Positions 1 through 8,242 of a stretch of DNA of 8,242 bases are shown piece by piece; position 1 is the first letter of the stretch, and the number at the start of each line of letters is the position of its first letter. Below the pieces are notes generated by a model that was not told the origin of the DNA, did no database searches, and saw only the letters and a program-made list of their open reading frames with translations. This DNA is from a virus (taxonomy: Duplodnaviria > Heunggongvirae > Uroviricota > Caudoviricetes). The stretch lies in the IMG/VR virus record IMGVR_UViG_2802429231_000003. One strand, given 5' to 3'. Position numbers and translations under genes: made by a program.

Positions 1-250
1 TGTTGGGTGGAGCGGACAATCCAAATGGTGAATTACTGTCTTATATCATTGGCGCTGACAGCGCAAAAACCTTAACAAAACTTAACATCCGGTGCGTACC
101 TTTTTGCGCAACCTGACTGCTGGTGGATGACTGGTTTTGACTATCTCCAGAAACAACCAGGGCCGGATAAACCAGCCCTGACTACTGTATAAAAACTGTA
201 TGCCCGTTGTTTGCATGGGGTAGTTTTCGCAAATACCCCCTTATGCCGTT

Positions 251-292
251 TTCAGCACGGGAGCGTCATACAGTCCAGGGTTCAGCACGGGA
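251..292. repeat. Two exact direct copies of TTCAGCACGGGA (251-262 and 281-292), 30 bp apart, in non-coding DNA left of the iteron array
   Basis: Read directly from the sequence; spacing of about three helical turns suggests a protein-binding site pair; function unknown. Confidence 0.5.
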
Positions 293-525
293 AGATGCGG
301 CGCTTCTTGATGCCGCCCGACGGTCTGGCAGCGGGCGCGAACGCTGTTTTGCACGAAATAGCTTTTCCGTGCGCTCCATTGAACATCCCTTCTTTTCGCT
401 GATTTTAGCTTCCTGTTGTTCTGGTTGTTTGCCGGATGCCTGATTTTACCAGATACCCGCCAGGCGAGCTTTCCGGCTTTCAAACCTGAAATTCAGGAAA
501 AATCATCTCTATATATACAAAAAGG

Positions 526-814
526 TGTTGTCCCTGTTGTCCCGGTTGTCCCAAAAAATGTAACCAACTGATTTTATTGAATCTTATTTTTAATTGTGGG
601 ACAACATGCCAGCATTGTGGGACAACATGCCCTGTTTCTGTGTTGTCCCGGATTGTTGGCTGATGAATGTTGTCCCAAAACTTCCTGACGTTGTCCCAAA
701 ATCGCCGCATGTTGTCCCAGAAACACGCTATGTTGTCCCATAATTATCTGATGATATGTATAAATAACAGTAAGTTAGTTAAAAAACGTCTTCATTGGGA
801 CAACCGGGACAACA
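526..814. repeat. Iteron array, putative replication origin: 12 copies of TGTTGTCCC/GGGACAACA flanking A+T-rich spacers
   Basis: Direct copies at 526-534, 535-543, 545-552, 641-649, 668-676, 690-697, 710-718, 731-739 (about 21 bp periodicity in the central block); inverted copies at 598-606, 619-627, 797-804, 806-814; A+T-rich stretches at 553-596 and 740-790; lies immediately 3' of the replication-protein gene, as in SaPI/PICI and P4 origins. Confidence 0.75.
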
Positions 815-834
815 TCTTTACGCGCACGTATGAA

Positions 835-2976
835 TTATTCGGCTTCTTCTTCCTCCTGTTCAGGTGCGAAAAGCAGGATATATGCACGCTGCCGGGCGTT
901 ATTCTGATGTTTCAGGCGCGGTGTTCTGCCCTGCCAGCCCCTGCCGCTGGTGGGTTTCTTAAGCATTCCCGCATCATGCAGTACCTGCGCCACTGCGTCC
1001 TTGTTAAAGCCTCTGGCAACGTGTTCTTTAAACGGTGCCGGAAGCACGTAAAACAACATCGGGTCATCATACCGTTCGCCCTTGTCCCGGTAGCCCATCA
1101 GTTCACCGATGTGGAGATCTCGCGGATCATAATCCACGGGTGCAAATTTGCTCATGCCCCAGGCGTTAAGAAATGCCACTGCCTGTTCTGCAATCTGCTG
1201 GTGTTCTTTGTTCCCGGTGCCGAACTCTTTCACCCAGGCATTAAAGCTGCGCTGTACCGCATCCCGGCACCCTTGCGCATCCCATCCGGTGATATGGCCT
1301 GACAGCACCAGCGCCGCTTCCATGATGGCGAATCGCTCCCCGACGCGGTGGACCTGCTCGCCGTAGTTGTCCGGGATAAGCCCGCGCCAGCGTTCCCTTG
1401 CGGCTTCTGTGGCCTCCCGCGCCGCCTGCTGGTGGTCTGCCAGCCAGCGCACCCATTCACGCCCTGCGGTGCCATGATGCGCCATACAGGCCGCTCTGAG
1501 CGCATCAGCATGAGCTTTACCGGACGGCAGCCCGTGAAATTCCGTGGCCTTCTCCAGGGGCACATTAAGCAGGCGCACCAGTTGCCCCGCTTTGGGCTTC
1601 ATGCCTGCGGCTGCAAGAAAGGTTTCTATGTCCATTTCTCCGGTACTGATGGCGACAGTTCGCCAGCGTTTAAGCTCCCGGTTACCGCCTTCCTTCGCGC
1701 CCTGTAGTTTCCCCACACCGTTAAACAGCGTATAGGCAGACGTTGCCACGGCGCGGGCGTCACTGCCCTGACCAACCTCATCCAGGGGCATCAGGCCGTC
1801 ATTGTGCGCCTGTGCCTCGTTAGCGATACCCAGCGCAGTACCGTACCAGGTGAGGCGCAGTAAATCCGGGTTACCGTACAGACTGCTGGCGATGTTTGCT
1901 GTGGTGGTTTTCCCGGCGCTGGACTGCTGGAAGAAATGGACGCCGAAGCCATCCGCACCCACCAGCCCGACCAGCGGCGCGGCAAGTGCTGCCGCCACGC
2001 CCAGCATCATGGAAGGATTACCCGCCACCAGCGTGGCGACGTTCTCCCGCCAGCTCTGCGCCGTACCTGCACAGGTGTAACCGGAAGCCGTCGCGCTGTG
2101 ACCGTAAAACAGGACCTTCCGGCCCGCCTCGCCGATGATTTCCCCGTCCGGCATGATGTACGCGCCGTGCTGCCATCCGGTCAGGCTGGTGATGTGCCAG
2201 AGTTCCCCCGCGCCACTGCGCAACAGGTGATCGGCAAGGATGGCGCGAAAGTTGTTTTTAGCCGTGACAGAAAGCCCACCAGCACGTAACCGCGACCAGC
2301 CTTCATGCTCGCCAGTATCACGCATGGGGATCGCTTCGGTGTGCGCTGTACGCGCGCCTGCGGGCTTCCAGCGCAGAACAATATACCGCTCGGACTCATC
2401 CGCACCGATGCCCACCACCTCAAGAGGATCACACAACCACTGACCGGGGCGGGTAACTTCCCCGGTCTGCTTATCCATCTTTGGCGTTACCCAGTACAGA
2501 CCGTCAGGGCGGGCATCCACACAGGGGGCCAGCTCATCCACCGGCGCAGGTTTGCCCTCTGCCCGTTGTACCTCTGCCACCAGACTTTCTTCCCCGCGTT
2601 CGTGCTGTTCGCGTATCCGGTTCAGGTAGTCGCGCCAGTCTTCCGGGTGCTGGTCAGGTATCCCCTGGTATAACTTCGCTTCCTGTACGCCCGCCAGCGC
2701 CAGCTTTTCAGCAATGGCGTTAATCTGAATGGGCTTAATATCTCCGGCATGATAGAGGCGGGCGCACTTACGCCCGTTATCAATAATGCGCAGGTTCGCC
2801 AGGTCTGCCAGTTGCTTTGGCCCCAGCCAGACAGGCGGCGTTTTATCTGCGGCAACTTTTAATCCCCAGTCCTCTTCCCATGTTTTAGCGTGAGCGAAGG
2901 CATCAGCCCCGGCAAAGATAACCACCTCAACATGTTTATCTTTCGGTTGATGCTTAAGGTTCGGTGCGTTCTTCAT
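835..2976 (-). CDS. Replication initiator, primase/helicase-like P-loop NTPase (713 aa); DUF927-type replication protein as found in P4-like/PICI elements
   Basis: Long intact ORF; Walker A-like motif QQSSAGKTT; RBS GGGAGG about 9 nt upstream of ATG; start overlaps upstream gene stop (ATGA); iterons directly downstream; acidic C-terminal tail. Family assignment is from recalled sequence character, not a search. Confidence 0.8.
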   Translation of the reverse strand: MKNAPNLKHQPKDKHVEVVIFAGADAFAHAKTWEEDWGLKVAADKTPPVWLGPKQLADLANLRIIDNGRKCARLYHAGDIKPIQINAIAEKLALAGVQEAKLYQGIPDQHPEDWRDYLNRIREQHERGEESLVAEVQRAEGKPAPVDELAPCVDARPDGLYWVTPKMDKQTGEVTRPGQWLCDPLEVVGIGADESERYIVLRWKPAGARTAHTEAIPMRDTGEHEGWSRLRAGGLSVTAKNNFRAILADHLLRSGAGELWHITSLTGWQHGAYIMPDGEIIGEAGRKVLFYGHSATASGYTCAGTAQSWRENVATLVAGNPSMMLGVAAALAAPLVGLVGADGFGVHFFQQSSAGKTTTANIASSLYGNPDLLRLTWYGTALGIANEAQAHNDGLMPLDEVGQGSDARAVATSAYTLFNGVGKLQGAKEGGNRELKRWRTVAISTGEMDIETFLAAAGMKPKAGQLVRLLNVPLEKATEFHGLPSGKAHADALRAACMAHHGTAGREWVRWLADHQQAAREATEAARERWRGLIPDNYGEQVHRVGERFAIMEAALVLSGHITGWDAQGCRDAVQRSFNAWVKEFGTGNKEHQQIAEQAVAFLNAWGMSKFAPVDYDPRDLHIGELMGYRDKGERYDDPMLFYVLPAPFKEHVARGFNKDAVAQVLHDAGMLKKPTSGRGWQGRTPRLKHQNNARQRAYILLFAPEQEEEEAE

Positions 2977-3215
2977 TCCACCGCCTCCCTGCGGGTGGCA
3001 GCCAGTGCCACGGCATCGCGGGTAAACTCCCGGTGAAAGCGATCCACCGGATATACGCAGGGGTGAGAGTAGCCATCACGGACATATGTCACGCGGTTGA
3101 ACTGATTCGCGGTAATCACTACCGCACACCCGGATTTATCGCGCCATTTATCACCGGGGCGAATTTCGGGTAAAGCCTGCCCGCTGGCAGGAACGCCAGT
3201 TATTTTCTTGGACAT
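2973..3215 (-). CDS. Hypothetical small protein (80 aa), translationally coupled to the replication gene
   Basis: ORF with AAGG RBS about 11 nt upstream; stop overlaps primase start (ATGA); no recognisable domain. Confidence 0.6.
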   Translation of the reverse strand: MSKKITGVPASGQALPEIRPGDKWRDKSGCAVVITANQFNRVTYVRDGYSHPCVYPVDRFHREFTRDAVALAATRREAVE

Positions 3216-3227
3216 TATTTTTTCGCC

Positions 3228-3425
3228 TTATGCTGCTGGTGGTGTAACGGTAAATCCGGCTATTTTTGCCGCTTCCAGAAAACCTTCCAGGTTACTGACA
3301 AACTCGTTTTTCTGTAGCGTATAGCCGCCTGTGGCTGTGCCTTTTTCCACGTTAACCAGGACAGGTCCGGTGAAGTCCGGTCGCGCCGGAATGGTAACTG
3401 TGAAGGTCAGGGAGTGATTATGCAT
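3228..3425 (-). CDS. Hypothetical small protein (65 aa)
   Basis: ATG at 3423-3425 preceded by GGAGG; ATG overlaps the upstream gene stop (ATGCATAA). The longer track ORF to 3491 would need a non-ATG start and overlap the upstream gene by about 70 nt. Confidence 0.6.
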   Translation of the reverse strand: MHNHSLTFTVTIPARPDFTGPVLVNVEKGTATGGYTLQKNEFVSNLEGFLEAAKIAGFTVTPPAA

Positions 3426-3960
3426 GGTCTGCCTCCACATACGCGACACCCGCCACATCAAGCGCCTGTTTAAAACGGCAAAGCATTTCACGGCGTTCGC
3501 GGTACAGGGCCAGCACGAAGGGATCGAGTGTGGCTTCGATATCGGCAGGATAGCGACGGACGAAAGGCAGAAGGACGACGCCCTGACAGCGGTGTGGCGT
3601 GGAGGATTTCACCTGGTCAGCCAGCATATTCACCAGGTCATGTAACAGCCCGGTAAGCGGCTGGATCATGTCACGGGGCAATGTATCGGCCACCAGCGCC
3701 TTTGCCAGCGTGAGGCAGTATTCCAGCGTCAGGCTTTCATCAGGCCAGTACTCTGACAGATCGGATGCGGTATTGTCCGGCAGGGGAAGCGCCGTATCCG
3801 CATGGTATGCCGCTGTCAGTGCCTCCAGTGAGGTGACAAGGGATTTGCACATCGCCCGGTGTTCAGTGCGGCTGTGGTATTCCATCAGCCTGCACACCAG
3901 CGCGGCGCACTCACCTGCCAGATGAAACAGGTCAGCGCCTGCGGGGATCGGCTTATTCAT
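3418..3960 (-). CDS. Hypothetical protein (180 aa), member of the replication operon
   Basis: C-terminal 180 codons of the 619-aa track ORF; ATG at 3958-3960 preceded by a G-rich RBS and overlapping the upstream gene stop (ATGAATAA); the remaining 5' part of the track ORF is low-complexity antisense of the plus-strand genes. Confidence 0.65.
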   Translation of the reverse strand: MNKPIPAGADLFHLAGECAALVCRLMEYHSRTEHRAMCKSLVTSLEALTAAYHADTALPLPDNTASDLSEYWPDESLTLEYCLTLAKALVADTLPRDMIQPLTGLLHDLVNMLADQVKSSTPHRCQGVVLLPFVRRYPADIEATLDPFVLALYRERREMLCRFKQALDVAGVAYVEADHA

Positions 3961-4150
3961 GATGCGCCCCCGTAGCGGGCAGACGTCCAGCGAAGAAGCA
4001 GACACTTTCCCGCGCAAGCTGGCGGCGGGCTTCATGCTCGCTATCTGCGGCGATATGGTGGATTTTTGCGGTGATAGTCGGGCAATCGCGGCGAACGGCA
4101 GCGATAAGCCAGATGAATCGCGGGTGTGACGGGGTAAGGGTAGCGACCAT
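3953..4150 (-). CDS. Hypothetical small protein (65 aa), first gene of the replication operon
   Basis: ATG at 4148-4150 with GAGG about 9 nt upstream; stop overlaps next gene start; position analogous to kil-like first genes of the P4 left operon (analogy only). Confidence 0.55.
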   Translation of the reverse strand: MVATLTPSHPRFIWLIAAVRRDCPTITAKIHHIAADSEHEARRQLARESVCFFAGRLPATGAHHE

Positions 4151-4314
4151 AGCGGTGGCCTCGTGAGTAGGTTTATTAACCTCACCAGACCGCTGCTAAA
4201 CGGGGTGGTGAGACGTAACAGGGTTAGCAGACCGGCACTCACGAAACCGGCAGGCGCGAACGCCTCCCCGTTACGCCCCACCATAATACGGACGCAACAT
4301 GGCATTTTACGGAC

Positions 4315-4346
4315 AAAAAAAGACCGCGTTACAGAATGGTCGCGGT
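4315..4346 (-). terminator. Putative intrinsic terminator in the leader of the replication operon (minus strand)
   Basis: Minus-strand RNA ACCGCG-(12 nt loop)-CGCGGU followed by C and seven U (top-strand A run 4315-4321); lies between the divergent promoter region and the first operon gene. Confidence 0.45.
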
Positions 4347-4404
4347 TGTCCGCGCGAGTATTCAGGCTGCTAAACCCGGCCAGTGGATTTACACCAGCGG
4401 GAAA

Positions 4405-4434
4405 AGCATAGCGCCGGGCGGCAGTGTCAGGCAA
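4405..4434 (-). promoter_or_regulatory. Candidate sigma70-type promoter for the leader/replication operon
   Basis: On minus strand TTGCCT (top 4434-4429), 18-nt spacer, TATGCT (top 4410-4405); each hexamer is only a 4/6 match. Confidence 0.2.
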
Positions 4435-4445
4435 GGGATTTTTTT

Positions 4446-4480
4446 GTGATGTAATCACTTTCATCAGTACGTTACTGATG
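4446..4480. promoter_or_regulatory. Two adjacent operator-like dyads upstream of the plus-strand two-gene module
   Basis: GTGAT-gta-ATCAC (4446-4458) and CATCAGTA-cgt-TACTGATG (4462-4480), the latter with perfect 8-bp arms; just upstream of TATGAT (4482-4487) and the RBS AAGGAGAGG. Confidence 0.35.
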
Positions 4481-4512
4481 TTATGATTTACATCAACAAG
4501 GAGAGGCAAATT

Positions 4513-4794
4513 ATGTCTGCTGTTGAGTTGATGAACCGACGGATTCAGATTGCGGATAATGCTTTCGCCATCATCCGCATCTTGCAGGTTGACCCGTCCA
4601 TTCTCGGTAGCCAGCATCTGTATAAATACAGTCTGGCCTATATTGTGGATGGCGTCTGCGTGATGCGCTACGACAACGAACGGGGAAATGGCGACCACAA
4701 ACACATTGGCGATCGTGAATTTCCGGTCACGTTCACCAGCATACAAGACCTGATAGCCAGCTTTCAGGAAGATATCAACCATCTGAGGAGATGA
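4513..4794 (+). CDS. Small protein (93 aa), possible toxin-like partner of a two-gene module (tentatively TumE/DUF6516-like)
   Basis: ATG at 4513 preceded by AAGGAGAGG; motif RYDNERGNGDHKH; followed 4 nt later by an HTH gene with its own RBS. Family assignment is from memory of the motif and unverified. Confidence 0.65.
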   Translation: MSAVELMNRRIQIADNAFAIIRILQVDPSILGSQHLYKYSLAYIVDGVCVMRYDNERGNGDHKHIGDREFPVTFTSIQDLIASFQEDINHLRR

Positions 4795-4798
4795 CATT

Positions 4799-5158
4799 AT
4801 GAGAGTGTTAACCGTCAGGATTATGTCTATCGCCGATGCTTTCCAGACAACGATGGAAGATGCCACTCGCGCTATGTCAGGCGTGGTTGTTGGATCTGAT
4901 TTGATATTCCCCAGCGTTGAGCAGCTTGCCAAAACGATGCTTGCGCCCAATCGCTGGCAAATTATCAGAGTGATGAAAGGTGCAAAACCCGTTTCTATTC
5001 GTGAGCTGGCCCGTCTGGTAAATCGCGATTTTCGCGGTGTATACAACGATGTACAGGCACTGTTGAACGGCGGCGTTCTGGATCGGGATGGCGATAAAAT
5101 CGTATTACCGTATGACCGCGTACACATTGAGTTTAATTCGGACGACGCCGCAGCGTAA
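4799..5158 (+). CDS. Winged helix-turn-helix DNA-binding protein (119 aa), putative regulator/antitoxin-like partner
   Basis: GGAG RBS 9 nt upstream; HTH-like segment PVSIRELARLVNRDFRGVYNDVQALL followed by a wing-like segment; strong terminator downstream. Confidence 0.7.
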   Translation: MRVLTVRIMSIADAFQTTMEDATRAMSGVVVGSDLIFPSVEQLAKTMLAPNRWQIIRVMKGAKPVSIRELARLVNRDFRGVYNDVQALLNGGVLDRDGDKIVLPYDRVHIEFNSDDAAA

Positions 5159-5177
5159 CGGTACGAGGCGTTTATCG

Positions 5178-5209
5178 GGGCGTGGATATCCTCTGCGCCC
5201 TTTTTCTTT
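5178..5209 (+). terminator. Intrinsic terminator after the plus-strand two-gene module
   Basis: 9-bp stem 5178-5186/5192-5200 (two G-U wobbles), 5-nt loop, then TTTTTCTTT. Confidence 0.65.
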
Positions 5210-5273
5210 GTCCGTATGTCAACTTTTGACAGGTTGAGGCCAGACACGGGCAAGCTCTTATTCTGAATGCTTA

Positions 5274-6098
5274 TCATTGAACTACCTCCAGGCGACGGGC
5301 TAACCAGCGCTGAGACAGGCGCAGTAATTCTGTCTTGCGCTGGTGGTAGTCCTGCCTCAGTTCTATTAGCGTGATATTGGTCTGCTCAAGATAAGAAAGG
5401 TGATCGAGTTGTTCCTCGCTCATATGGTCGCGGGCTTCGCCGGTGATGCCGTTCGCCTGCGCCCACTGTTTCGCTGTCATTCCACCCAGCACGATCCGCG
5501 CCAGCATGTTCGATTCAGTTGTGTAGTGATGTGGTTGTGTGGCCTTGCCCTGTTCCTGCCTCACCACTTCCAGCGCGGCGCACATCGGCTTAAAGTAACT
5601 GGCGGCGGTGATACGGGCCTTAAGTTCTTTGCGCAGCGCAGCGGCTTTTAACGGGGCTTCCTGCTGTAATGTTTCCTCGCAGTGAATGAAGTAACGACGA
5701 ACGGCGCGGCCCTGCTCGTTGCGTTCGACCATCGCCAGCTCTTTAGCCATATTCAGCGAAAGCAAATACTCCCGGCTTCGTCTGTCCCCACCGCGTCTTG
5801 TTTCCCACGCCTTTCCATCATGGTTATTATTTGAGCTTTGATTCCTGAAATTTGAGGAATCAAAAAGGGTGTAGTCACTGTCAGCAATGAAACCATATTC
5901 CTCAATGCGGCCCTTAATCCATGTGGAAAAGTCATTTCCCACACCCAGCGCGGCATGTAACTCCTTTGCACTTACCACGCTGGCAGGCTGGCTACCGATA
6001 ATGCCGGAAATAACCGGGATGAGTTCGGCAAAATTATTCTGGTTATGGTTTTCAGGGTGAGCGATGCCCTGACCGTGAAGGCCATTAATTAATTTCAT
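5274..6098 (-). CDS. Phage antirepressor, AntA/AntB N-terminal domain family (274 aa)
   Basis: Segment YLLSLNMAKELAMVERNEQGRAVRRYFIHCEETL matches the conserved core of AntA/AntB antirepressors as recalled; AGGA RBS; 14 nt downstream of the preceding gene on the same strand. Confidence 0.75.
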   Translation of the reverse strand: MKLINGLHGQGIAHPENHNQNNFAELIPVISGIIGSQPASVVSAKELHAALGVGNDFSTWIKGRIEEYGFIADSDYTLFDSSNFRNQSSNNNHDGKAWETRRGGDRRSREYLLSLNMAKELAMVERNEQGRAVRRYFIHCEETLQQEAPLKAAALRKELKARITAASYFKPMCAALEVVRQEQGKATQPHHYTTESNMLARIVLGGMTAKQWAQANGITGEARDHMSEEQLDHLSYLEQTNITLIELRQDYHQRKTELLRLSQRWLARRLEVVQ

Positions 6099-6112
6099 TA
6101 TTTCAGTTCCTG

Positions 6113-6544
6113 TCAGGCGGCGTTCTGGTTATCCGGGTACATCATGAGGATGCTTTCGATAGTCTCCGGGGTAAGGCTCCAGTAGCCACCAGTACTGGCA
6201 CACTGATTGACCAGCTTAATGACCTTCATCACGTCCTCACGGCAGGCAAAGCGGTAGCGAAGATGTGCCCCTATACCATCGGCATTGGCTTCTTCTGAAC
6301 GCGCCAGGCAGATATCAAGGCGGCGCTCCAGTTCACTGGCGTAATTGCGGCCTGATGAAAGATGGCAGTGGCGCAGAATATCGTTTTCAGTCCAGCCACC
6401 AGCACCAGTGCAAAGCATATAAACGCGGGCGCGGTGCTTCTTCGGTGTGCGTCTCGCTTGTGTGCGGCTGGTGGTGGGGATAACATCAGACGGGCGAATA
6501 TCTGTGTTAGCCGCCTGCTGTTCGGGGCGGTTTTCTTTTTTCAT
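6113..6544 (-). CDS. Hypothetical protein (143 aa), co-transcribed with the AlpA-family gene
   Basis: ATG overlaps the AlpA gene stop (ATGA); basic N-terminal region; no recognisable domain. Confidence 0.6.
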   Translation of the reverse strand: MKKENRPEQQAANTDIRPSDVIPTTSRTQARRTPKKHRARVYMLCTGAGGWTENDILRHCHLSSGRNYASELERRLDICLARSEEANADGIGAHLRYRFACREDVMKVIKLVNQCASTGGYWSLTPETIESILMMYPDNQNAA

Positions 6545-6753
6545 TGCGCCACCTCGCCGCGTGATTCAAATACACGATCATTTATCCATTTATTAACTTC
6601 GTCTTCAAACCAACCAACACGGCGTAGGCCAATGCGAAATCCTCGCGGAAATTCGCCAGCGTTAATCATCTCCTGAAATGCGCTATCTGATTTAATACGT
6701 AAAATCATTTTTACTTCTTTTTTGAGAAGGATCTTTCTTTCTTCTGATGTCAT
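6541..6753 (-). CDS. alpA: AlpA/Vis-family phage transcriptional regulator (excisionase-like HTH), 70 aa from ATG
   Basis: Pattern ILLKKEVKMILRIKSDSAFQEMINAGEFPRGFRIGLRRVGWFEDEVNKWI resembles the AlpA-family HTH; the track ORF extends to 6771 only with a TTG start, so the first ATG (6751-6753) is preferred. Confidence 0.7.
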   Translation of the reverse strand: MTSEERKILLKKEVKMILRIKSDSAFQEMINAGEFPRGFRIGLRRVGWFEDEVNKWINDRVFESRGEVAQ

Positions 6754-6816
6754 TTGGTTAATCTCATTCAATACCGATTAATTCCGGCGGTGTAGGAATA
6801 CTGGCATGATGAGATA

Positions 6817-6886
6817 GGGTGAGGGCAACACTATTTGGGGTGAGGGTAGGTTACCGTGAGGGGCCGGGGTGGTTACCCTCACGGTA
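6817..6886. promoter_or_regulatory. G+C-rich repeat cluster and perfect 11-bp inverted repeat between the orphan gene and alpA
   Basis: GGTGAGGG at 6818-6825 and 6839-6846, CCGTGAGGGG at 6854-6863; inverted repeat TACCGTGAGGG (6852-6862) / CCCTCACGGTA (6876-6886) with 13-nt loop; no U tract follows on either strand. Confidence 0.4.
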
Positions 6887-6890
6887 GATG

Positions 6891-7619
6891 TTAAGCCACT
6901 TTTGATGGGGTGCGATCGATTGGGCAAGCGATTTTTTCGATAGCTTTGGCTGTCGATTCAACAAATCCGTAACTGGTTTTAAGCTCTGTAATTATGGCCT
7001 GCTGGTTAACTCTGGTGCCATTATTGTTAGGGTCATACTCTGCCCATTCACAATTCCTTATCCTGATAGCCTGATACAGAGGGTCTCTTTCTACGCCTCC
7101 GATAAACTTACCCAAGTGAAGAGGATACGATTTTTTTAAAACCTCAATATCTCTTTCTAGTGCGGTAATTTTATTCTTAAGTTCGGATATCTCTTGTGAC
7201 TCTTGATTTGTACGCGATGGCGGCTGTAATCCCACCTCGTAGGGGTGGTTAATTATAATGGCATTATATTCTGTGAACTCATTTTCAACCCAAGTCCAGA
7301 TGTCCTTTGCCAGAAAGTTAGCATCTACTATATGTGTGTTGATATTAATATTATCATTTTCAACTAAGCTTAGGATATCAATTGGGAGATCCCATGAAGG
7401 GTCAGAATATGTGTAAGCTTTCAGTGGGATAACTTCTTTCAATTTAATAGCTTGACATATAATTTCTTTAAATGATGAAGCTTCTTCATCGCTAATGTAG
7501 CCACTGATAATATTTGGATCAAGAGTATCGTACTCACCGGATAAGCCTGCCATAACTAAAGCTGCTTGCTCTAAAGTCACAATTCTGAGTCGTTTAATAT
7601 GGAAAGGTAAATCAATCAT
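6891..7619 (-). CDS. Hypothetical protein (242 aa) in a markedly A+T-rich gene; candidate accessory/cargo gene
   Basis: Intact ORF with GAGG RBS about 8 nt upstream; composition visibly much more A+T-rich than flanking genes; predicted coiled-coil-like segment (ESQEISELKNKITALERDIEVLKK); no recognisable domain. Confidence 0.7.
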   Translation of the reverse strand: MIDLPFHIKRLRIVTLEQAALVMAGLSGEYDTLDPNIISGYISDEEASSFKEIICQAIKLKEVIPLKAYTYSDPSWDLPIDILSLVENDNININTHIVDANFLAKDIWTWVENEFTEYNAIIINHPYEVGLQPPSRTNQESQEISELKNKITALERDIEVLKKSYPLHLGKFIGGVERDPLYQAIRIRNCEWAEYDPNNNGTRVNQQAIITELKTSYGFVESTAKAIEKIACPIDRTPSKVA

Positions 7620-7919
7620 TACGCCACCTCACGCCCTCTATCATGGAGGCCGCGCCAACCCGCAGAGGTGTACGGGAATTCGGGAGCTACCCTAGACGCG
7701 GCTTATTCTGTTACCGTCGGTTATCTTCGGTTTTGCCCATGATAGATCGTTTTCTGAACGCTTGCATTGCAAGACTGTGTGAATAATCAGCTTGTGTTTT
7801 TATACAGCTCTAATTCCTCTCATTCCTGTTGCTAGGGTCACTCCCGTGGATGCGGTTTCCACAAATTCCCCCCACCAGCGCATCAACACAATACGCTTTT
7901 CAAGATAGTTACTCCGGTT

Positions 7920-8242
7920 ATCAATTTGCGCGTAAGACCTCGCCCAATCGGGCGGGGATATAAGCGCGGTAACTGCGTAACATTTTTTGACCTTCGTCAA
8001 TATGGCTTACATTTTTCAGTGTATTTTGTAAGCCTATGAAACGCGCCTATAAATACAGATTCTATCCAACACCCGATCAGGTTGAGCTTTTGGCTCAAAC
8101 GTTCGGGTGTGTGCGTTTTGTCTATAACTCGATCCTGCGTTGGCGCACCGATGCGTACTACGAACGGCAGGAGAAGATCGGCTATACACAAGCCAGCGCT
8201 CGCTTAACAGCACTGAAAAAAGAGCCAGATTTTGCCTGGCTC
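7920..8242 (+). mobile_element. Left end of an IS200/IS605-family insertion sequence (tnpB-only type or tnpA lost), truncated by the window edge
   Basis: TnpB N-terminus begins at 8036; subterminal hairpin CGCCC-AATC-GGGCG at 7941-7954 (extendable to 7938-7957) about 80 bp upstream, consistent with an IS605-family left-end structure; left boundary approximate. Confidence 0.5.
8036..8242 (+). CDS. tnpB: IS200/IS605-family transposase accessory protein TnpB (OrfB), N-terminal 69 codons, partial
   Basis: Translation MKRAYKYRFYPTPDQVELLAQTFGCVRFVYNSILRW matches the conserved TnpB/OrfB N-terminus; in-frame stop at 7988-7990 upstream; ORF runs to the last base, so it is absent from the complete-ORF track. 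Confidence 0.8.
   Translation, partial: MKRAYKYRFYPTPDQVELLAQTFGCVRFVYNSILRWRTDAYYERQEKIGYTQASARLTALKKEPDFAWL

Follow-up and report, generated by a model that had tools for sequence, protein, structure and literature searches.

In Gram-negative PICIs, an integrase gene (int) and alpA are followed by a Bro/Ant zone that includes a C4-type RNA, then by a primase/rep gene and an origin (ori) (PMC6092414, PMC10111431), and immunity RNAs of the C4/isrK type have been described in these islands (PMC10111431). Their iteron sets flank an AT-rich region located 3' of pri-rep, and four allelic Pri-Rep variants occur in E. coli PICIs (PMC6092414). Both rep and ori of EcCICFT073 are required for plasmid replication (PMC6092414, Fillol-Salom et al. 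2018). The SaPI Reps are self-loading helicases that recognize iterons through a C-terminal winged-helix domain (PMC9371898, PMC7581432), and a SaPI ori contains 6-12 short iterons immediately downstream of rep, with an AT-rich centre and at least two opposed iterons on each side (PMC9371898); for SaPIbov1 Rep and the SaPI ori, the work of Ubeda et al. 2007 is cited here as related in PMC7581432. Both SaPIs and EcCICFT073 have functional origins of such an architecture on the 3' side of rep (PMC6092414, PMC9371898, PMC7581432).

The window analyzed here, a stretch of 8,242 nucleotides, carries a repeat array at positions 526-814, close to the 3' end of a gene coding for a DUF927 protein (Rep; 835-2976, minus strand). 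Sequence comparison makes it highly probable that this array is the cognate origin of a Gram-negative PICI-type island and is recognized by this helicase-initiator. We take Rep to be one of the four allelic variants of PMC6092414. It differs from the Pri-Rep of EcCICFT073, whose helicase is of the D5 type (D5_N, DUF5906, Pox_D5) and which has only residues 1-160 in common with it (44% identity); the EcCICFT073 origin is of the same style, with the iteron CTGTCTACC. Compared with SaPIs, the window has an initiator homologous to SaPI Rep and 12 iterons downstream of rep, with opposed sets around AT-rich DNA, but SaPI iterons are penta- or hexanucleotides while the unit found here is longer (8 bp) and there are two AT-rich centres.

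E. coli 042 is among the strains with a PICI that have been studied (PMC6092414). It has an island at the same tRNA-Pro site as the one described below, which we define by that site and do not equate with EcCIO42. Its DUF4222 gene and DUF927 rep are followed by a 236-bp gap and then by SSB, ProQ/FinO-like and PerC genes, and its rep shows about 72% DNA identity to the window rep over part of the gene. The gap contains six copies of CTTGTCCC, one base away from the window iteron, with one AT-rich stretch against two in the window. The Shigella island to which the window corresponds is without SSB, PerC and late genes and is cut by insertion sequences (IS).

The initial annotation, made from the window alone, had likened the array to P4 ori/crr, and this likeness holds for position and logic only. 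P4 is an enterobacterial satellite whose fused primase-helicase-initiator, alpha, recognizes octamer iterons that occur in both orientations, some of them as 9-bp tandem pairs, and its crr lies directly 3' of alpha, as the array does relative to rep. However, alpha and Rep are unrelated (BLASTP E 1.1) and the domains of alpha (Zn_Ribbon_Prim, Toprim_3, D5_N, DUF5906, Pox_D5) differ from those of Rep; a tblastn search against the phage collection gave no P4 match. The P4 type I iteron is TGTTCACC, as given in the initial annotation, and the window iteron GTTGTCCC indeed differs from it. In addition, P4 has two cis regions (ori and crr) 4.5 kb apart that share the iteron, and a terminator between alpha and crr, whereas the window and its Shigella counterpart have a single cluster and the window has no such terminator.

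Iteron plasmids such as pPS10, RK2, R6K, F and P1 follow the same logic, an element-encoded initiator acting on repeats beside an AT-rich unwinding element. Their iterons are direct repeats of 17-22 bp, bound by WH1-WH2 Rep proteins that have no helicase activity and depend on DnaA boxes and on DnaB/DnaC. In contrast, the window has repeats of 8-10 bp in both orientations, an initiator that is a P-loop helicase, and no conserved DnaA box. Another DUF927 helicase, Cch of SCCmec (PDB 5DGK), belongs to a Gram-positive cassette chromosome and not to a phage satellite. In the literature examined we found no iteron origin described for Cch itself; it is the Cch2 type, not Cch, that binds repeats downstream of its gene (PMC7581432). 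The element would work like the Gram-negative PICI replicons and by its features belongs with them, and its initiator belongs with the SaPIbov1-Rep/Cch (DUF927) helicases.

Organization of the island

Positions 61-7921 of the window are 99.3% identical to a Shigella flexneri contig (L084), in which the island lies beside tRNA-Pro(GGG), between yejM and narP. L084 carries an intact copy, in which the order is integrase, a 242-aa gene, AlpA, a 143-aa gene and the antirepressor AntA; next come TumE and HVO_A0114 genes as a pair on the opposite strand, three small genes, DUF4222, the DUF927 gene of 713 aa, the array and finally about 1.3 kb free of genes. In this copy, the int start lies about 8.5 kb from the end of the array. 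In the window, an int remnant is followed by the int-alpA RNA, alpA, AntA, the C4 RNA, DUF4222, rep and the array (Table 1). The window is a Gram-negative PICI-type phage-satellite island: int, alpA, then pri/rep and then ori run in one direction, the array directly 3' of rep has iteron sets that flank AT-rich DNA, and the island is small, without phage lysis or tail genes. It also shares with Gram-negative PICIs the Bro/Ant zone and the DUF4222 gene.

Table 1. Features of the window (positions in the 8,242-nucleotide stretch).
Feature	Position	Strand	Description
Iteron set D, distal	526-552	+	Three tandem copies (526, 535, 544), 9-bp period
AT-rich spacer 2	553-597		45 bp, 18% G+C; second candidate unwinding element
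Iteron set C	598-627	-	Copies 598-606 and 619-627, 21 bp apart, each within an exact 18-nt repeat ATTGTGGGACAACATGCC
Iteron set B	641-739	+	Five copies (641, 668, 689, 710, 731), spacing 27/21/21/21 bp; opposite to set A
AT-rich spacer 1	740-796		57 bp, 21% G+C; candidate DNA-unwinding element
Iteron set A, nearest rep	797-814	-	Two tandem copies, 806-814 TGTTGTCCC and 797-805 GGTTGTCCC; 9-bp period; on the rep coding strand
rep	835-2976	-	713 aa, DUF927 helicase-initiator; variable C-terminus
Codons for Rep residues 655-707	856-1014	-	Segment tracking the iteron class, motif SGRGWQGRTPRLKHQNNARQRAY; putative iteron-recognition module
DUF4222 gene	2973-3215	-	Overlaps the rep start; constant upstream partner of rep here and in related islands
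C4-type antisense RNA	4201-4288	-	Rfam RF01695, 79 bits, E 9e-15; in the Ant/Bro zone
TumE toxin-family gene and HVO_A0114-family gene	4483-4794 and 4799-5158	+	On the strand opposite to all other island genes
AntA-domain gene	5274-6098	-	
AlpA gene	6541-6771	-	
242-aa gene	6891-7619		No assigned function
int-alpA RNA motif	7635-7702	-	Rfam RF02996, 43 bits; between the integrase remnant and the 242-aa gene

The TumE/HVO_A0114 block is 91% identical to its Salmonella relatives, against about 80% for the flanking island DNA, and the two genes are likely a toxin-antitoxin or cargo pair; PADLOC gave no match on this block. Residues 178-263 of the AntA protein match the PADLOC candidate defence family PDC-S22 (E 2.4e-9). 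A mechanically called open reading frame of 619 aa (3418-5277, minus strand) contains the C4 RNA and is probably not a real gene, since it matches no family and is not called in L084.

Both ends of the window are IS DNA. Positions 1-60 are the end of an IS21-family element and match DNA beside istA of the IS21 in phage fiAA91-ss, and positions 7922-8242 are a second IS end (a transposase end common on plasmids) that leaves roughly the last 40 codons of int. Judged by this cut in int, the island cannot be excised by its own integrase in the window strain. We found no structural, par, terminase, phage lysis or tail gene in the island, which looks truncated beyond the array, and no attR in the form of a direct repeat (at least 14 nt) of the tRNA-Pro region downstream. 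The island in the window strain has decayed, and because int is cut by an IS, no attR repeat is found and no genes lie past the origin, the origin may never fire there as part of a mobile element. Searches for near-identical copies of the array or the window in complete E. coli genomes, phages and plasmids matched only the IS ends.

Structure of the repeat array

Searching the window for TGTTGTCCC with at most one mismatch gave 13 matches, 12 of them inside 526-814, while 1.95 are expected by chance (sd 1.38, largest value 6); a count of 13 was not attained in any of 200 dinucleotide-preserving shuffles. Every one of the 12 copies in the array matches the 8-mer GTTGTCCC exactly. The base 5' of it is T in nine copies, G in two and C in one. 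The iteron unit is 8 bp when only invariant positions are counted and up to 10 bp by consensus (tGTTGTCCCa). In L084, all 12 exact copies of GTTGTCCC lie in the array and none elsewhere in the 22-kb locus.

Along the array, three copies, an AT-rich stretch, two copies, five copies, a second AT-rich stretch and two copies follow each other (Table 1), and 20 nt separate the first iteron from the rep stop codon (835-837). The number of copies and this layout 3' of the rep gene had been proposed in the initial annotation and are borne out by the counts and shuffles. It had also placed the five inner direct copies at about 21 bp from each other, which is right for three of the spacings; the fourth is 27 bp. 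The period is 9 bp in both outer tandem sets. The 21-bp phasing corresponds to two helical turns and would place the inner sites on one face of the helix.

The array as a whole has a rough dyad symmetry. Segments 535-554 and 795-814, belonging to the outer sets D and A, are perfect inverted repeats of each other over 20 nt, and the part of set B nearest rep is mirrored by set C over 40 nt with 80% complementarity. Both AT-rich stretches are bracketed by iteron sets of opposed orientation, and their G+C contents (21% and 18%) contrast with values of 52% in the window as a whole and 59.5% in the rep gene.

A coding reading of the open reading frames that cross the array was rejected: the region is non-coding, because the translations merely read the repeats and relatives carry spacer indels of 1 nt and 10 nt. 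A scan of 37 origins for host-factor motifs (the IHF consensus WATCARNNNNTTR, the DnaA box and GATC) revealed no conserved IHF site, DnaA box or GATC cluster. An IHF-consensus match, AATCAGTTGGTTA, is present at 561-573 (minus strand) within AT-rich spacer 2, with a similar site only in close Salmonella relatives. We found no terminator-like site on the rep strand between rep and the array.

Directly past the last iteron lies a block, TTTTTGTATATATAG (509-523, minus strand), which looks like an extended -10 element and faces away from rep. It is kept in the subfamily with TCCC iterons (Shigella, Salmonella, Erwinia, Serratia and viral contigs) but not in the other iteron classes. We rejected it as a general origin element, as it is confined to one subfamily.

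The Rep protein

Rep matches the Pfam family DUF927 (7.6e-48; residues 159-436) and a PHROG annotated as DNA primase (1.3e-135). Its Walker A (GKT355-357) and Walker B (DE399-400) motifs are invariant across the Rep family, and residues 1-130 may be TOPRIM-like. The closest solved structures are those of the SaPIbov1 replication initiator-helicase (8tch) and of the SCCmec Cch helicase (5dgk), with E-values of 3.6e-14 and 1.3e-3 by phmmer, and of 1.6e-9 and 1.9e-9 when an AF2 model of Rep was submitted to Foldseek. The model of the whole protein is of mediocre quality (pLDDT 62.6), and its use was limited to these strong Rep and Cch matches. Rep is a homologue of SaPIbov1 Rep in both sequence and fold.

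The C-terminus was also modelled separately (residues 586-713, from 22 sequences), with a pLDDT of 51. Foldseek with this model found no match in the PDB below E = 1, a profile search of the PDB from the alignment found none either, and hhalign against the C-terminus of P4 alpha gave a probability of 0.2. A winged-helix C-terminal domain in Rep would be conceivable only by analogy with the SaPI Reps.

Conservation of the array in relatives

We found more than 2000 homologues of Rep. A DNA match to at least part of rep is present in 939 of 5426 complete E. coli genomes, some of these matches covering only its shared 5' end. In a scan restricted to one genome per species, 80 loci with a rep homologue were obtained, 77 of them with at least 300 bp of downstream sequence. 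Some 7-mer is present in at least four exact copies within 420 bp past the rep stop in 72 of these 77 loci, and in at least nine in 35. In shuffled DNA, the maximum for a repeated 7-mer was 2-4, with 4 reached in 11 of 500 shuffles. The repeated word varies by locus: the commonest is TGTTGGTTCA, and others are TGTTGTCTCA, ACTTGTCCCA, ACTTATCCCA, CGTGGTTCA, GTGGGTTA, ACGGGTTA, TCGGTTCA, AGTGTGTCA and TTAGTCCAA.

Although the 8-10-mer differs, offsets and orientations recur across loci, often as a 12-site plan. On the rep side, two or three tandem copies located 22-31 nt past the stop are followed by an AT-rich gap and by four or five copies in inverted orientation, with a phasing of 11 or 21 bp. 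The far side has one to three copies oriented like the first set, then another AT-rich gap and a closing tandem of three inverted copies, which brings the total to 12 sites. Most relatives have the equivalent of set A as a two-copy tandem at this distance of 22-31 nt, and the gap at the position of spacer 1 is kept at about 55-65 bp. A short form with five or six sites, which ends after the first inner set, is also common; spacer 2 is present in the 12-site long form and missing from the six-site short form of E. coli 042. The layout is the same whether the next gene codes for SSB or DUF4224 or there is no next gene.

Across five members of the TCCC subfamily (the window, Salmonella, Erwinia, Serratia and Pantoea), 72% of iteron columns are invariant against 25% of spacer columns (Fisher p 6e-15), and the spacers carry indels that are not multiples of three. 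The Salmonella enterica relatives (L085, and also L086 and L087), with 85% identity in Rep, have a gene for an NEL/LRR E3-ligase effector (788 aa; 13920-16286 in L085) and phage tail remnants about 1.8 kb past the origin, so that an effector gene adjoins a satellite replicon.

Viral contigs were scanned with two tandem copies of GTTGTCCC, and 120 loci were returned. Most of these (82) have at most two copies, the chance level for 16 specified bases, and a few (L176, L196, L182, L098) consist of simple tandem repeats and have no rep gene. True arrays, i.e. clusters of GT(T/C)GTCCC in two orientations, were found at six loci, in all of which a rep homologue ends about 25 bp before the array. These six follow the same 12-site plan, while their rep homologues are only about 61% identical overall; the C-terminal motif of the latter, SGRGWQIRTPRLKH, is related to SGRGWQGRTPRLKH of the window. 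A further Rep homologue is encoded at 98639-100708 of the 106-kb record of Klebsiella phage P12620-1 (PQ569648.1), with 63.5% identity over 96% of the protein; this record may contain a satellite island or an element that was co-assembled.

Iteron class and the Rep C-terminus

The relation between iteron class and Rep was studied on 69 loci, by scoring 30-residue windows of Rep for their ability to separate pairs of the same iteron class from pairs of different classes (AUC). The AUC is 0.95-0.98 for residues 660-707, versus 0.72-0.80 across residues 154-600. In pairs whose helicase cores are 93-97% identical but whose iterons differ, the difference between the proteins is in the C-terminus.

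The most telling case is given by the GTTGGTTCA origins (L050, L011) and the GTTGTCTCA origins (L039, L026), which can be aligned end to end and in which one and the same trinucleotide is changed at 12 of 12 sites. Between the Reps of these two classes, the sharpest local difference is a segment of 6-7 residues, YQ-RKSPRI-GG versus YQ-GRV-RE-DG, although such pairs share only about 50-73% identity over the last 58 or so residues as a whole. Spacer identity is 0.52-0.69 between the two classes and 0.58-0.69 within the GGT class, and this similarity argues against a simple block inheritance of the whole origin. Linkage could nevertheless account for part of the joint change, as the C-terminal codons adjoin the origin; the spacer comparison lessens this concern without removing it. 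Taken together, the alignments indicate that an iteron-specificity determinant is likely located in a short C-terminal segment of Rep.

Discussion

The data on relatives bear on what the initial annotation had said of the array. Its assignment to the SaPI/PICI ori architecture is supported by the homology of Rep to SaPIbov1 Rep, by the PICI gene order and by the position of the array, which is kept in relatives. Its suggestion that the initiator might have a distinct specificity agrees with the joint change of iteron sequence and Rep C-terminus. The comparison of iterons across related elements that it had called for gave a constant plan with a varying word, in arrays of at least four copies at 72 of 77 loci. 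Finally, the same array in unrelated, non-replicative contexts, which would have spoken against the origin, was sought in viral contigs and not found, all six true arrays adjoining a rep homologue.

Could the array be an auxiliary cis element, with the true start of replication elsewhere? It would then be a Rep-binding enhancer or a copy-control element acting by 'handcuffing', like P4 crr or the inc iterons of plasmids. The iteron cluster that directly follows alpha in P4 is indeed crr and not ori, and the 12 sites of the window exceed the six of the E. coli 042 short form, so some of them could be regulatory. However, neither the window nor the 22 kb of L084 contains a second iteron cluster, and two stretches of 18-21% G+C within opposed iterons correspond to the layout of SaPI/PICI origins (PMC9371898, PMC6092414), which makes this explanation unlikely. 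We regard as more improbable still a role of the repeats as operators, by which Rep or another protein of the island would control transcription from rep into downstream genes. The lack of a terminator-like site between rep and the array on the rep strand would suit such a role, as would TTTTTGTATATATAG with its promoter-like appearance past the last iteron, but that block is limited to the TCCC subfamily, the layout is kept whatever gene comes after it, and operator arrays are normally without 12 sites, two AT-rich cores and a dyad symmetry that spans the whole array. A regulatory side-effect of Rep binding would in any case be compatible with origin function and is no alternative to it.

The repeats might also serve another function of the island, as arm-type sites for the integrase or excisionase near attR, as a packaging (pac/cos) site or as a partition centromere. 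The array is near the distal end of the island, and arm-type and centromere sites are likewise short repeats in both orientations. Against this, the iteron class tracks the Rep C-terminus down to a segment of 6-7 residues, the rep stop lies at a fixed distance of about 22-31 nt, the island has no par or terminase gene, and no att core repeat was found nearby; a function of this kind is extremely unlikely.

If the array is the origin, the following sequence of events can be proposed. The C-terminal 50 or so residues of Rep would read the 8-10-bp iteron, (T)GTTGTCCC(A), and Rep oligomers would build on the opposed iteron sets that flank 740-796 (A and B) and 553-597 (C and D). One or both of the AT-rich stretches would then melt, and the Rep helicase would load itself without DnaA or DnaC. 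The lack of conserved DnaA boxes, GATC clusters and IHF sites fits such a self-loading initiator. Given the near-dyad symmetry and the two AT-rich stretches, two rings could load in opposite directions.

Beyond this scheme, we put forward more tentatively, as rather doubtful ideas, that the array is a dyad-symmetric double origin and, separately, that a simple code links Rep and iteron. The 12-site long origin could comprise two unwinding elements, each of which loads one Rep ring facing the other. As for the code, alignments suggest that the central trinucleotide of the iteron may be matched by a Rep segment of 6-8 residues, with RKSPRI for GGT, GRV-RE for TCT, and G/I-RTPRLKH for TCC. A related possibility, held with the same reserve, is that the intact rep-ori pair of the immobile Shigella remnant still fires and amplifies the neighbouring chromosome in situ.

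The analysis very probably locates, as far as sequence can tell, the origin of one branch of satellite islands that are very widespread in enterobacteria, together with its likely initiator. This is a known kind of origin, and the current understanding of how such origins work is unchanged. The branch is that of the DUF927 (SaPIbov1-type) helicases, as opposed to the D5-type helicase of the sole Gram-negative PICI replicon tested so far, and what is added is a 12-site, two-stretch plan conserved across it, a candidate specificity segment, and arrays that were never found away from a rep gene. For annotation, an array of this type after a 'DUF927 domain-containing protein' identifies a satellite replicon. 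The comparative data supply a map of the part of Rep that would set origin specificity, of use in constructing orthogonal replicons and in predicting whether islands resident in the same cell are cross-replicated or incompatible. If the recognition code is true, the specificity and incompatibility groups of satellites would become predictable, and orthogonal replicons could be engineered.
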